Below are positions 10,069-15,820 of a stretch of 64,000 bases of DNA, in pieces. The notes under the pieces are model-generated. The model saw nothing but the letters and a program-made list of their open reading frames with translations, was not told the origin of the DNA and ran no database searches. The translations under genes were made by a program, and so were the position numbers. Numbering within the stretch: position 1 is the stretch's first letter; each line of letters begins with the position of its first letter. Location: contig OZ241986.1 of NCBI GenBank assembly GCA_965204375.1, positions 2,208,001 to 2,272,000 on the forward strand, written 5' to 3'. The DNA is from Candidatus Latescibacterota bacterium. GTDB taxonomy: Bacteria > Latescibacterota > UBA2968.

Positions 10069-10169
10069 AAGTAAGAAGTGAAAAGTAAGAAGTGAGAAAG
10101 CCACCCCAAACCGCCTAAAGGCGGGTGCTTCATCACACTTCACACTTCTGCCTTCACACTTCACACTTC
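10069..10169. repeat. Inverted arrays of 7-bp repeats around a small hairpin
   Basis: AAGTAAG/AAGTGAA/AAGTAAG/AAGTGAG, then CCGCCTAAAGGCGG, then ACACTTC units running into the stop codon. Confidence 0.75.
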
Positions 10170-13100
10170 CATCGGTAACCCCACAAATAACCGACTATAC
10201 TCATCTGTCAACGGATCGCGCTCGCCCTTTTGCGCTGCGCGGGCAAAGACCACACCCGGCTTTTCCGACCTGCGCGCCCGCGCCAAAACGCCATATCCAC
10301 CGGGCGCACTCTGCGTTTCCAGATCGCTCTGAATCGCCAGCATCTCCGCCAGCGCATTGGCCAAACCCCAGCGCGCACCTATCGCCCGCGCAAAAAGCTC
10401 CTCTGGCGTCAGCCCCTCTCGAAAACCGTGCTTCAGGGGCGTAAACCCACCCTGATCATTCCGCGTCACGCCCTGGGGAGCCACATAAAGTCTAACCTGC
10501 TGCCAATTGGCACGCGCACCACATTCCACCAGAAGCGCGGGAATCCCGAGATCATCGTCGTCATATCCGCGAAATCGCGCCAGCACAGCCGACACCTCAT
10601 CGGGATAATCGCGCCAGACATCTGGGTCATCGCCCTCTGGTCGATCGGGCCAATCGAGCGACGAACCGATAAACGCACTCATCGACGCTCCTGTCTTAAG
10701 CGCGGCATCAAACCCTCTATCCCACAATCGCGCTGCCAGATCCAATGCAGCCTTCGAGCCATCGCGCGCTATTGCAGCCGCCATCCAGTCCATCACCTGA
10801 TACTTATCGACAAATAACCCCTTTCGCTCAACCTCATCGCCGACAATCTCCGCAATCTCCTGCAATCCCTCATCCGTCATACTCATATACGCCAGGCCAA
10901 ACAGCGCGTCGTGCATCGGGTGTACCTTCTCGCGTGCAATCAATCCCGGATCCCGCTTCAGATGCGCCACTGCCGATAGATGCGCTTCAGCCGACCGCTG
11001 TCCCTCTTCAGTCACCGGCACAAAAATCGCCACTTGATCGCCATCAAAATCCATATTCATCATCTTGCAAATCGCCACACACACGCGAATTGCCTCACCT
11101 TCCACGCGCACCGGACGACACGCCACAAAAGCCATCGGCGAAAACGCGGGATTGCGAAGCACCACGGCCCACAATTTAGCCATAGCTGCATCCAGGGCTT
11201 CCTCCGCTTTCCTCGACCGCCTATCCACTTCTTCAGCACCCACCTCTCGTGCTGCAAACGGCCCAAACAACGTCCACGCCATTTCCTCGGGCACACCGAC
11301 CTGATCGTATCGCAATTCGGGTGCAGGCACAGCCACCGAACGCCCGCTGAACAACGCCCGCGCCTGAAATTGCAAACGCGACAACTCGCAAAATGCGCGA
11401 ACCCGCTCAGACAGCGTCTCAACCGCACGATCCACCAATATATCTGGCGCACCATTGGCAATCATCTCACTCAACCGGTTATTGGCCTCTCGCAATTCTC
11501 GGGGCACATCTCTCCCACTCACATGTGTCAATGAATACCCCGGCAGCCACGGATGCGGAACCGGACGCGCAAGCGCGACATCTCCACCGCGTTTCAACGA
11601 AAACTCGGTGCCGCGTTCATCCAGTTCAACAGCCACCCCACCTCTTGCCAAATGCCCAATTAGCTCATCAAACTGAGGAGACGGCGTAGTGGGAGCAACA
11701 GACCCCGCAACGACGCGGTCAGCCAGCGTATCGGCATCATCTCGATCTACCGCACACGTATTGAACAAATCGTCAATCACCCCAAAAGCACCCGCTTCTC
11801 GCAACGCCAAAAACTCTGTCTCGCCCAACCTTTGATCGTGTTGATCCGGCTTCACACCCATGTGAATTTTATCTGCTGCCAGATGCAACGTGCGTCCCCA
11901 ATACACCCACCCCACTGTGGTGCGACGCGGCAGCGTTTTCCCATTCACCGTCAGCGTCTCCATACCATCTTCTGCCAGTTCTAAAGCCTTCAACTGCGCC
12001 CGCATCTCATCGTCTTTGGGCGCACTGAGCACAGGAATAATAACCGGCTCTCCCTCGGCCTTTGCAATGCGCCCGGCCACAGCTTCGCGCACCTGACCAA
12101 TATTCAATCGCGACGGCAAACCACACACACTCACAATAAGTTCCACAGGCGTGCCATCCGACAATCTGGGCATATCTTCATCTCGCAAAATGCGCGACAC
12201 CACACCCTTAAAACCGTGCCGATTGCTCAGTTTATCGCCCGACGCAACGCGATTGGGCAACATCATCCGGTTCGCAGCCGATTCGCTGATCACAACTGCA
12301 TCTTCGTGTGTATCACCATTCCACGCCATAAACGCGGTCAGCAAATTGTACCCCGTCCAGAAATGCGAATCGCACGGTTCACATCCCGTCTGCACCAGCG
12401 CGGGTTCCGACTCCAGTGTTTTGCCGTCATATTGCGCGTGATACGCGTGCCACACGCCTTGCTCATCGCGCTGCATATCGGGACTCGGCGCGCCAATCCA
12501 CTGCCGCATCATATTCACGCCCATCAAAACGCGATTGGTATCATTGTGTTCCAAAAACGGGACTACCGAAGCACCTATCCCCAACCGCTTTTCAGGTGCA
12601 TCGTCTTCAATCACCAGCTTGCCATCGCGAATAGTCGCCCCTTGAGCCACCTCTAAAATCCGCGCGAGATTCGGTCCCTCAGGCGTGCAATAAGGACACA
12701 CGCGCCCATCGTGCGACGGATGATAGCAATTCTCTATTCCCTCATCGGCCTCACCGATAATTGGGATCAACGTCACCCGCCGCAAATGAACGTACATATC
12801 CTGCAAATTGGTCGCCTGCAAATACTGAGAGGTCGGTTCTTCCGTAAAAAACGTGTGAATCCAATCTCCTAACGGCATCCATGTGTCAACGGCATCTCCC
12901 AGCATCTCTGGCATATTTTCCAACCGCGCGGCAATATAATCGCGCACTTGCTCGCCCACACACCGAATATCAGCACGCGCCAAATCCACATCCGTCGGGG
13001 CTGGAACCACCGTGCGAAAAAAGCCATCTACCTTAAACCGCCCCCATTCGTCGGGCTGAGGAATATCTTTGTACACAACCTCTTGCCCCCCCTGAATCGT

Positions 13101-13247
13101 GAGATGCAATTCACAGGTATATTCATCCACTGACACCACCCGATACCCCGCCAGCGATACCCGATCCGCCAACAATTCGGGCAACCCCTTTTGCACAAAC
13201 ACATCCCACGAAATTTTATGCCACGGCGCCTTTACTGAAAGACTCAT
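10161..13247 (-). CDS. Miniaturised single-chain RNA polymerase beta-beta' fusion homologue (two-barrel polymerase)
   Basis: beta motifs: [86 protein letters not shown]. beta' motifs: [51 protein letters not shown] before ATG 13247. Confidence 0.92.
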
Positions 13248-13289
13248 CAAATTCCTCCTATTTCATTAAAGGGGAGAATAAATACAATT

Positions 13290-15117: not shown

Positions 15118-15182
15118 GTAAACTGGTCTGAGGATGATATACAACGGGTCGTTTCTCAGACCCGTTCAACGACCAGTTTTAC
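15118..15182. repeat. Nested palindromic REP/MITE-like element
   Basis: Outer AAACTGGTC..GACCAGTTT, inner AACGGGTC..GACCCGTT; related core at 45414-45437. Confidence 0.6.
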
Positions 15183-15772
15183 CCTCTCCCATACCTCCGA
15201 CCCCATGCCTCTGCGAGTTGCTTGCGCGCGTGGAACAGCCGCGATTTTACTGTCCCCTCTGGAATCGCCAGCCGTTCGGCAACCTCTCGAAGCGCCACTT
15301 CATCTTCGTACACCATCTGAAACACCTCGCGCTTTTCCTCTGGCAACGCATCGATTAACGCCTGCAAAATGCGCCGTTGTTCAGCGCGTTCCAACTGCAC
15401 ATCGGGTCCCAGTGCAGCCCGATCGATCATCCACCCCGGAACGGGTTGTTCTTCATCCTCCTCATCGTAAAGCGAAGGCATTTCCAGAGGCTGTTCGCGG
15501 CGGCGACTTTGGCTTCGCAATTGATTCAGCGACAGATTTCTCGCAATCCGAAACAGCCATCCCCGAAAAGACCCTTGCCCCGACCATTGATCGGCCCGAT
15601 TCCAAACTCTGAGAAAAACCTCCTGTGTCAAATCATCTGCTGCGACCGGATCGCGCGTCACCCAGCGCATACTCTCGGTCACCTGTGCCTGATAGCGCGC
15701 AAACAGAATCGCAAAAGCCTCTTGATCCCGCGCCACAATTCGCTGCATCAAAATCGCGTCCGATGGTGTCAA
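15179..15772 (-). CDS. ECF (group 4) RNA polymerase sigma factor
   Basis: Region 2 ADDLTQEVFLRVW/FRGWLFRIARN, region 4 EVAERLAIPEGTVKSRLFHAR; TTG start 7 nt after AGGAGG. Confidence 0.93.
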   Translation of the reverse strand: MTPSDAILMQRIVARDQEAFAILFARYQAQVTESMRWVTRDPVAADDLTQEVFLRVWNRADQWSGQGSFRGWLFRIARNLSLNQLRSQSRRREQPLEMPSLYDEEDEEQPVPGWMIDRAALGPDVQLERAEQRRILQALIDALPEEKREVFQMVYEDEVALREVAERLAIPEGTVKSRLFHARKQLAEAWGRRYGRG

Positions 15773-15792
15773 AAAATATCCTCCTGTGGGAA

Positions 15793-15820
15793 TCGACACC
15801 GCCCAATGTCCGAAGGTTCA
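15793..15820 (-). promoter_or_regulatory. Candidate ECF-type autoregulatory promoter
   Basis: TGAAC-N18-GTCGA just upstream of the sigma RBS. Confidence 0.45.

Follow-up and report, generated by a model that had tools for sequence, protein, structure and literature searches.

Does a bacterium that already encodes an ordinary RNA polymerase also carry a second, self-contained transcription system, built from a drastically shortened polymerase and a sigma factor of its own? The question is raised by a locus in a stretch of 64,000 nucleotides (hereafter the window) from a Candidatus Latescibacterota bacterium (assembly GCA_965204375.1, contig OZ241986.1, positions 2,208,001 to 2,272,000). Three open reading frames (ORFs) lie there head to tail, all on the minus strand, and encode a sigma factor of the extracytoplasmic function (ECF) type, an ATP-binding cassette (ABC) exporter and a protein of 1029 amino acids (aa) derived from the two large subunits of RNA polymerase, beta and beta'. 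The window belongs to a single-contig genome of 6.34 Mb, whose closest public relatives are labelled Candidatus Latescibacterota. Ordinary rpoB and rpoC genes (open frames of 1268 and 1373 aa) are present ~300 kb away in the same genome, and therefore the 1029-aa protein is the product of an extra polymerase-like gene and not the polymerase of the cell. A single multi-subunit polymerase with swapped sigma factors is the stated bacterial norm (PMC7671368).

The reading preferred here, to which we give a probability of roughly 55%, is that sigma factor and 1029-aa protein together are a minimal polymerase which depends on this sigma factor and transcribes its own operon at the least, and thus a self-contained second transcription system. 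The matter is of general interest, as many free-living bacteria, spread over five phyla or more, retain such an additional and heavily reduced polymerase, almost always together with a dedicated sigma factor and promoter.

The sigma-polymerase pair and its operon

Scanning one genome per species gave 35 related loci, from Latescibacterota, Armatimonadota, Planctomycetota, Chloroflexota (Caldilineaceae) and Spirochaetota, which were then searched by tblastn with the window proteins. Wherever there is DNA upstream of the polymerase gene (34 loci; the 35th is only 1151 bases long and has none), an orthologue of the sigma factor with 45-98% identity stands directly upstream on the same strand (34/34), and at most loci the polymerase gene follows it after ~10-100 nucleotides (nt). 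The preliminary description of this DNA had proposed that the neighbourhoods of homologues be searched for linkage to ECF sigma genes; this was done, and the attempt at refutation failed. Within the Latescibacterota, the polymerase was found in 65 of 168 genomes and the sigma orthologue (E<=1e-30) in 63. More specifically, the sigma factor is present in 62 of the 65 polymerase-bearing genomes, where the two genes are adjacent, and in 1 of the 103 polymerase-free ones, where it sits at the end of a contig. The three polymerase genomes lacking it are G143 (an intact polymerase with no adjacent sigma gene), G146 (a polymerase without residues 1-91) and G149 (a match at a contig end). Upstream linkage and co-occurrence together therefore support a dedicated sigma-polymerase pair well, as a genetic unit.

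No gene beyond this pair was conserved across phyla among the flanking genes of the distant loci, which encode a family 44 glycoside hydrolase, sulfatases, a sugar kinase, an ABC ATPase or proteins without a Pfam match, and elsewhere an IS1595 transposase, a type I methylase or a recombinase fragment. Being unrelated between distant loci, the flanking genes were rejected as parts of the system. The polymerase itself belongs to a sizeable family: among the best 120 clusters (at 90% identity), most are full-length proteins of ~1000-1070 aa and about eight are shorter pieces, and the name is hypothetical protein wherever their source gives one. The N-terminal 140 residues, which are almost without similarity to beta, matched 165 representatives (50% clustering), 109 of them at E<=1e-10; the full-length proteins among these are nearly all of 920-1100 aa, and the match is nearly always N-terminal. 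No NCBIfam model covers the family.

The layout given in the preliminary description stood up in three respects. The three co-oriented genes are confirmed as minus-strand ORFs with the matching Pfam domains; the bracketing terminators can be placed at 15852-15825 and 10065-10033; and the ORFs adjoining the cassette hold no anti-sigma Pfam domain. The two hairpins are the best terminator-like ones of the region and flank the three-gene set, with the reservation that terminator-like sites across the whole region are not above chance in number (9 found, 7.8 expected). The first of them belongs to the upstream gene, orf315, and its T-run extends into the -35 box of the cassette promoter.

The sigma ORF as listed by the ORF finder covers 15179-15799, starting from a GTG at 15799. 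As this GTG falls within the -10 box of the conserved promoter at 15795-15820, the start was corrected to the TTG at 15772, which is the start conserved in the orthologue alignment and has an AGGAGG ribosome-binding site before it. The protein matches Sigma70_r2 (E 1.8e-18) and Sigma70_r4_2 (E 8.1e-15), with no region 3 match in Pfam, and scores 121 bits against the ECF model TIGR02937 (cut-off 42.9). With regions 2 and 4 only and a score above the family threshold, it is a sigma factor of the ECF type (group 4). An ECF sigma gene usually, if not universally, has the gene of a cognate anti-sigma factor beside it.

The exporter, a half-transporter of the MsbA/bacteriocin-exporter type, has ABC_membrane (E 7.3e-33) followed by ABC_tran (E 1e-29), the order of a type I ABC exporter; no NCBIfam match reaches its cut-off. 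An exporter occupies the slot between sigma and polymerase genes in 8 of the 34 loci (once in a version only 39% identical), or in 9 of 35 operons when the window is counted. In close relatives the slot is empty or holds an unrelated ORF of 381-396 aa without a Pfam match, and exporter-bearing and exporter-less loci are sisters on the tree. The exporter is thus cargo and not core, so that of the dedicated three-gene transcription unit proposed at the outset the sigma-polymerase pair stands and the exporter as a member does not. The slot itself seems to be a hot spot for gene exchange. The alternative ORFs lie at L010:8710-9900 and L012:8786-9931 in two close relatives and have no match in Pfam or PADLOC. 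A defence-system identity was considered and rejected: PADLOC returned nothing for the polymerase, the sigma factor, orf315, a 343-aa zinc-finger protein encoded upstream or the alternative cargo ORFs, and only generic ATPase matches for the ABC protein.

Four RNA libraries of sponges and corals yielded contigs over most of the operon; these stem from relatives that are 90-99% identical, mostly 90-95%. One contig (11905-14325) spans the junction of polymerase and exporter genes, another (15044-15808) that of exporter and sigma genes, and a further one contains the exporter-less junction, with 13259 joined to 15201. Since these data are assembled contigs of relatives, they give no start, strand, level or single transcript, and DNA may have been present. 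Contig ends near 15797-15808 (two runs, one study) and uncovered parts were not used as evidence. The contigs are consistent with expression of the operon and are no proof of transcription or of a single transcript.

Anatomy and active site of the minimal polymerase

The polymerase ORF could equally well start at the ATG at 13247. Its product is beta-derived from residue 1 to ~545 and beta'-derived from ~546 to 1029. Pfam recognises RNA_pol_Rpb2_3, Rpb2_6 (E 5.8e-40) and Rpb1_2 (E 8.9e-16), and the best sequence matches in the PDB are to beta (E 5.9e-44) and beta' (E 9.8e-28). The AlphaFold2 model is a confident one, with a predicted local distance difference test score (pLDDT) of 91.8 and a predicted template modelling score (pTM) of 0.89, and its top Foldseek matches are bacterial and plastid beta and beta' chains. 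The protein is nevertheless far from a canonical subunit, scoring 175 bits against the rpoB model TIGR02013 (cut-off 801) and 114 bits against the rpoC model TIGR02386 (cut-off 963), and it lacks the lobe, flap, zinc domain, rudder and jaw.

What has been kept and lost was mapped with a family profile, built from 36 members and aligned to the RpoB and RpoC of E. coli (Table 1). No counterpart was found in this profile for beta 149-447, beta 824-1053, beta' 1 to ~75, beta' 132-266, ~25 residues after the clamp helices or anything past beta' 791. We take the missing stretches to be, by region name, the lobe, the flap with its tip helix, the zinc-binding domain, the rudder, and the trigger loop with the jaw. 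In total, ~60% of beta plus beta' is gone. As family positions 291-319 end at beta 823 and positions 322-396 begin at beta 1054, ~230 beta residues have been replaced by a short linker (residues 320-337), which bears out the earlier statement that the flap is much reduced. The retention of the beta' clamp helices, stated there as well, is upheld by alignment of the profile of residues 578-645 with beta' 267-359 of E. coli (E 1.6e-8) and with positions 273-365 of the host's own beta' (E 1.7e-9). Within the clamp, N590, P602 and L605 are kept in all 36 homologues, L613 in 34 and R592 in 33; the ~25-residue deletion that follows lies at the place of the rudder. In the canonical polymerase these helices are the main docking site of sigma region 2.

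Table 1. Features of the cassette, with positions in the window, and correspondence between the polymerase family profile and the E. coli subunits
Feature	Position	Strand	Basis or counterpart
Intrinsic terminator of upstream gene orf315	15825..15852	-	12-pair stem, 6 GC pairs, T-run
Cassette promoter, TGAAC-N15-GGTGTC	15795..15820	-	ECF-like -35 GAAC box, -10 box ending GTC
ECF-type sigma factor, 197 aa	15179..15772	-	Pfam Sigma70_r2 and Sigma70_r4_2, NCBIfam TIGR02937, start conserved in orthologues
Hairpin in sigma-ABC spacer, 7 bp, without T-run	15144..15165	-	direct sequence reading, no tool score
ABC exporter half-transporter	13290..15086	-	Pfam ABC_membrane and ABC_tran
Single-chain minimal RNA polymerase, 1029 aa	10161..13250	-	Pfam, PDB sequence search, E. 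coli rpoB/rpoC map, AlphaFold2, Foldseek
E316-D317, equivalent to beta E813/D814 (second-Mg ligands)	12300..12305	-	alignment to E. coli beta 795-823
Flap-deletion scar, residues 320-337 in place of beta 824-1053	12240..12293	-	beta 823 followed directly by beta 1054 in profile alignment
Basic loop G338-D339-K340 ... K348-G349, equivalent to beta K1065 and K1073	12204..12239	-	profile alignment
Beta' clamp helices, residues 584-620	11391..11501	-	profile alignment; model helices 584-598 and 603-620
Catalytic D734-F-D-G-D738, first-Mg loop	11037..11051	-	aligned to E. coli beta' catalytic loop
Bridge helix, residues 949-980	10311..10406	-	positions 900-973 = beta' 716-791; long helix 949-980 in model
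Intrinsic terminator closing the operon	10033..10065	-	14-pair stem, 7 GC pairs, T-run
Family positions 56-86			E. coli beta 118-148 (weak match)
Family positions 92-202			E. coli beta 448-577
Family positions 213-261			E. coli beta 652-700
Family positions 291-319			E. coli beta 795-823, Glu-Asp pair within
Family positions 322-396			E. coli beta 1054-1128, two catalytic lysines within
Family positions 391-540			E. coli beta 1177-1342, reaching the final residue of beta
Family positions around 526-580			E. coli beta' 76-131 (weak match)
Family positions 580-792			E. coli beta' 267-514, with clamp helices, part of switch 2 and catalytic Asp loop
Family positions 792-860			E. coli beta' 570-640 (weak match)
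Family positions 900-973			E. coli beta' 716-791, bridge helix start

The catalytic core, by contrast with the lost modules, is kept. Conservation was counted over 36 homologues, down to 38% identity. Every residue of the first-Mg loop (D734, F735, D736, G737, D738) is kept in 36/36; of the second-Mg pair, D317 is kept in 36/36 and E316 in 35/36; and in the basic loop G338, D339, K348 and G349 are invariant, with K340 in 34/36 and Arg in the other two. The equivalent of Rpb2 R1020, R381, is likewise kept throughout (36/36). The Arg and Pro of the Rpb1 barrel (yeast R446 and P448) are both present in the window protein and are not invariant in the family (R699 32/36, P701 31/36). The funnel residues G911 and R913 are kept in 28/36 each, and the C-terminal part of switch 2 is retained (R631 30/36, R637 35/36), its N-terminal part lying in the 25-residue deletion. 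The catalytic positions counted here are taken from section 9 of PMC2919709, where eight residues are given as invariant in all two-barrel polymerases; the funnel and switch 2 elements are said in that paper to mark the DNA-dependent members.

The bridge helix is retained. The chain ends 49 residues beyond it, which leaves no recognisable trigger loop. The tail (residues 970-1029) gave no profile match to beta', and a supposed likeness of residues 975-1029 to the C-terminal conserved region of beta' was dropped as the profile search matched nothing. Loss of the trigger loop does not disqualify the protein as an enzyme, since the prophage polymerase YonO, which has none, is reportedly as efficient as a multi-subunit polymerase, according to the part of PMC5467207 covered. 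On the conservation of its residues, the minimal polymerase looks catalytically active.

Promoter, proposed partnership and competing explanations

The promoter before the sigma gene is conserved across phyla. Aligned by eye, the upstream regions of different phyla share TGAAC(C/T/G)-N14-GGTGTC. The exact pattern GAAC-N15-GGTGTC occurs upstream of the sigma gene on the same strand at 29 of 35 loci, with 1.3 chance matches expected in 681 kb, and the promoter stands at the cassette in 21/21 genomes of the genus. At locus L025, where an ORF on the opposite strand separates the sigma and polymerase genes, a second copy of the promoter precedes the polymerase gene. The sigma factor probably recognises the TGAAC-N15-GGTGTC promoter before its own gene, which would amount to autoregulation.

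How the parts would act together can be outlined. First transcripts would come from the host polymerase, by read-through or with the cassette sigma factor. Region 2 of the sigma factor could then dock on the retained clamp helices of the minimal polymerase, and the resulting holoenzyme would initiate at the cassette promoter, sustaining its own expression and that of any cargo in the slot, which in the window would be the ABC exporter. Elongation would proceed without a trigger loop, by analogy with YonO. Linkage, kept clamp helices, absent anti-sigma factor and intact active site all fit a two-protein holoenzyme of this kind.

Complex prediction, which had been suggested as a check of the pair, was run with residues 1-800 of the polymerase and the sigma factor, next to three controls. 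The pair scored 0.45 (runs of 0.46, 0.45 and 0.35) and the best control 0.00; the partner had a pLDDT of 54 or more, and agreement between runs amounted to 32% or more of the contacts. In calibration, the 0.45 mark was reached by 58/80 solved complexes and by 2/110 mismatched pairs; scores <=0.60 occurred in only 7/80 solved complexes and in both of the passing mismatches. According to the calibration, a pass in this range is likelier to be false than true, except where the pairing was already probable. Moreover, sigma-polymerase complexes have already been solved, so the pass may reflect mere likeness to them. The suggested prediction thus passes against its controls, and suggests physical binding weakly.

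Several points weigh against the holoenzyme reading. The strongest counter-argument is structural: the sites on which sigma region 4 docks in the canonical enzyme, namely the flap of beta, tip helix included, and the zinc domain of beta', are deleted, yet the promoter retains a -35-like box at a constant distance, which would fit reading by the host polymerase with this sigma factor. The prediction for residues 1-800 with the sigma factor scored weakly and came without a reported interface. Clamp helices are in the canonical polymerase also bound by NusG-type factors, and therefore their retention is not specific to sigma binding. Region 2 of the sigma factor, judged by general ECF features, resembles that of an ordinary ECF sigma factor and gives no sign of avoiding the host core. 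Intact polymerases also occur beside a damaged or missing sigma factor: in G072 (locus L019) the sigma gene has an in-frame deletion of ~49 residues, in G140 a frameshift, and in G143 it is absent from the neighbourhood. Finally, no further copies of the promoter were found by a search with the strict motif pattern, which involved no weight-matrix scan and does not cover weaker sites: the host genome has 3 matches at N15, as against 2-4 at the control spacings (13, 14, 16, 17, 20 and 25), the two outside the cassette lie inside long ORFs on the same strand, and the 21 genomes of the genus hold 25 non-cassette matches versus 38 for a reversed control pattern. The cassette thus appears to be the only recognisable promoter target, and a holoenzyme that reads only itself has no obvious use.

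Much of this is also what one would expect if the sigma factor worked only with the host core, as a self-activating switch of the operon, and the minimal polymerase were the main regulated product and acted without sigma (for example in priming, in transcription of single-stranded or damaged DNA, or in RNA-templated synthesis). The promoter has -35 and -10 boxes at fixed spacing, yet the minimal polymerase is without the elements by which region 4 is positioned, flap and zinc domain; the sigma factor looks canonical; the lack of other promoter copies is as expected if its sole job is to express the operon; and the enzyme persists where the sigma factor is defective or gone. YonO, moreover, needs no known sigma factor, as stated in the part of PMC5467207 used here. 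A mere regulator is, on the other hand, rarely glued to a single target across five phyla (34/34 loci; 62/65 against 1/103 genomes), this one has no anti-sigma factor or other visible input, the clamp helices have been retained selectively, and the complex prediction is weakly positive (subject to the likeness to solved complexes mentioned above). This is the main rival; we regard it as unlikely on balance, while giving it real weight. Were it true, the question would become what use a cell has for an extra polymerase without a trigger loop.

A second alternative, that the cassette is a remnant or domesticated module of a phage or mobile element and serves the element and not the cell, is far less probable. 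It would account for the patchy distribution within the phylum (65/168 genomes, and 19/52 of those of high quality), for the two polymerase copies in genome G071, for the recombinase fragment, IS1595 transposase or type I methylase that adjoins some loci, and for a module that carries its own promoter. A search of 50,697 phage records speaks against it, as at least 80% of the protein was covered in none of the 35 matching records (0/35), nor in any of the 68 matching plasmid records (0/68). The best relatives in IMG/VR are at most 31% identical, and those inspected (12 of 80 loci) are separate beta-like and beta'-like genes, most being two-gene beta/beta' sets and two resembling cellular rpoB-rpoC. 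In a viral structure library only giant-virus and poxvirus polymerases were found (template modelling score, TM, <=0.33), besides a minor tail protein (TM 0.38). The absence of any PADLOC match for polymerase or sigma factor points the same way, the neighbours in the window are ordinary chromosomal genes such as uvrB and the gene of quinolinate phosphoribosyltransferase, and on the tree the 23 copies from Latescibacterota all fall into a single group, as would fit mostly vertical descent within the sample; some transfer is compatible with the patchy distribution.

About as improbable is the other possibility offered beside a private holoenzyme in the preliminary description, in which the minimal polymerase is a mimic that sequesters the sigma factor via the clamp helices as a new kind of anti-sigma factor: its gene does lie directly downstream of an ECF sigma gene, the usual anti-sigma position, with no other anti-sigma factor present, the docking site of region 2 is kept and those of region 4 are gone, and an operon that is the only detectable target of its sigma factor would give a closed feedback loop, but the Asp triad, second-Mg ligand and two lysines are invariant or nearly so, the bridge-helix, fork and switch residues are likewise conserved, a decoy needs none of these, and a 1029-aa protein with a confidently folded, conserved active-site cleft would be a costly one. 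The earlier choice between holoenzyme and mimic can thus be narrowed, with the dedicated genetic pair upheld and a pure mimic made unlikely by the invariant catalytic residues.

A bolder form of the holoenzyme reading is that the cassette is a complete, portable, orthogonal system of ~3.7 kb, consisting of (i) a single-chain core of ~115 kDa, (ii) a sigma factor of ~22 kDa and (iii) a cognate promoter (the masses being estimates from 1029 and 197 aa), which maintains itself by positive feedback and expresses the gene in the slot, the sigma factor binding the minimal core in place of, or besides, the host core. This is put forward tentatively, at somewhat less than even odds for the whole. If true, no smaller sigma-dependent polymerase would be known, and nature would offer an exception to the one-polymerase rule. 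A holoenzyme would further define the minimal parts of a sigma-dependent polymerase, without flap, zinc domain, rudder or trigger loop, so that the accepted roles of these modules in initiation would become directly testable; it would show how sigma region 4 is positioned without the flap tip, and provide a compact natural orthogonal expression system.

Neighbouring sequence and known systems

Directly upstream of the cassette (15878-17846, minus strand) lie two genes for proteins of 343 and 315 aa. The former carries a DksA/TraR C4 zinc finger at its N-terminus (Pfam E 1.3e-8), its long C-terminal part being without assignment; the latter, orf315, has no family match. Both genes are kept upstream of the cassette in the genus and at locus L040 (55-56% identity), and not at other loci. 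Zinc fingers of the DksA type bind the secondary channel of RNA polymerase.

Between the polymerase stop codon and the operon terminator, at 10066-10170, there is a palindromic repeat element in which GAAGTGTGAAG runs stand opposite CTTCTCACTTC runs, with a GC hairpin in the centre. An 11-mer of this element occurs 6 times there with one mismatch allowed (0.85 expected). RNA-library contigs reach 10-50 times the depth of the flanks at this place and have many different loose ends, so it is a dispersed repeat; similar repeats are also found upstream of the sigma promoter in relatives.

Further along the minus strand, the segments 7107-9940 and 1503-3404 hold the gene of a BlaI-type repressor, followed by that of a BlaR1 M56 peptidase to which five TonB C-terminal domains are fused; another M56-TonB_C protein is encoded further along the 1503-9940 stretch, with WG-repeat and HEAT-repeat proteins in between. 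On the other side, 20019-21780 (minus strand) encodes a type II restriction-modification pair, an MjaI-family endonuclease with an N6/N4 methylase, adjoining uvrB and the quinolinate phosphoribosyltransferase gene. GC skew on the plus strand is strongly negative (-0.15 to -0.30) over most of the first 30 kb and accompanies the minus-strand coding.

A sigma-linked minimal beta::beta' polymerase was not found in the literature, with the proviso that the supplementary tables on the genomic context of ECF groups could already list this neighbourhood. Six RNA-polymerase-subunit terms are absent from the main text of the ECF reclassification paper (PMC7826278), its supplements being outside the scope of this search. 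Nor did the literature covered report a sigma factor with YonO, the killer-plasmid fusion, the full-length fusions or the phage pairs, which are the systems that come closest.

With the canonical core and its ECF sigma factors, the cassette shares both catalytic barrels, the fork region, the bridge helix and the clamp helices on one side, and sigma regions 2 and 4 with a promoter made of a -35 GAAC and a -10 box ending in GTC on the other. It differs in having one chain of 1029 aa where E. coli has 2749 aa in two, in ending past beta' 791 with an unrelated tail of only 56 aa, and in being an extra copy beside rpoB and rpoC. Full-length beta-beta' fusions (Wolinella, Helicobacter-type, Candidatus Adlerbacteria, as described in the part of PMC11515920 covered) also unite both subunits in one chain; unlike the minimal polymerase, they are the only polymerase of the cell and of full size (NCBIfam model lengths ~2840-2890), neither pruned nor extra. 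The NCBIfam models of such fusions match the minimal polymerase at E ~1e-49, far below their cut-offs.

The reduced beta/beta' polymerases of tailed phages (IMG/VR loci; see also PMC7481178) resemble it in being shortened, to proteins of ~900 and ~1000 aa that match residues 178-966, and differ in being two genes, only 22-27% identical, on viral contigs. Another viral contig in IMG/VR carries a single 2037-aa ORF (L121:3643-9756) that matches residues 338-791 at 31% identity and may be a fused beta-beta' polymerase of another size class. A similar event gave rise to Orf6 of the yeast killer plasmid pGKL2, described in PMC2919709 as a 982-aa Rpb2::Rpb1 fusion with the same beta-then-beta' order and a loss of about half of the coding sequence. 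The likeness is one of description. Orf6 is of eukaryotic descent, resides on a cytoplasmic plasmid and has no sigma factor, and the two fusions are presumably independent events.

YonO of the Bacillus subtilis prophage SPbeta (PMC5467207) is likewise a single chain of ~100 kDa with a two-barrel active site and no trigger loop, additional to the polymerase of the host. The two are compared here by description. YonO has very distant homology to the multi-subunit polymerases, is encoded by a prophage and has no known specificity factor, according to the same part of that paper, whereas the minimal polymerase plainly comes from beta and beta' (Pfam E 5.8e-40), sits in the chromosome and is coupled to a sigma factor.

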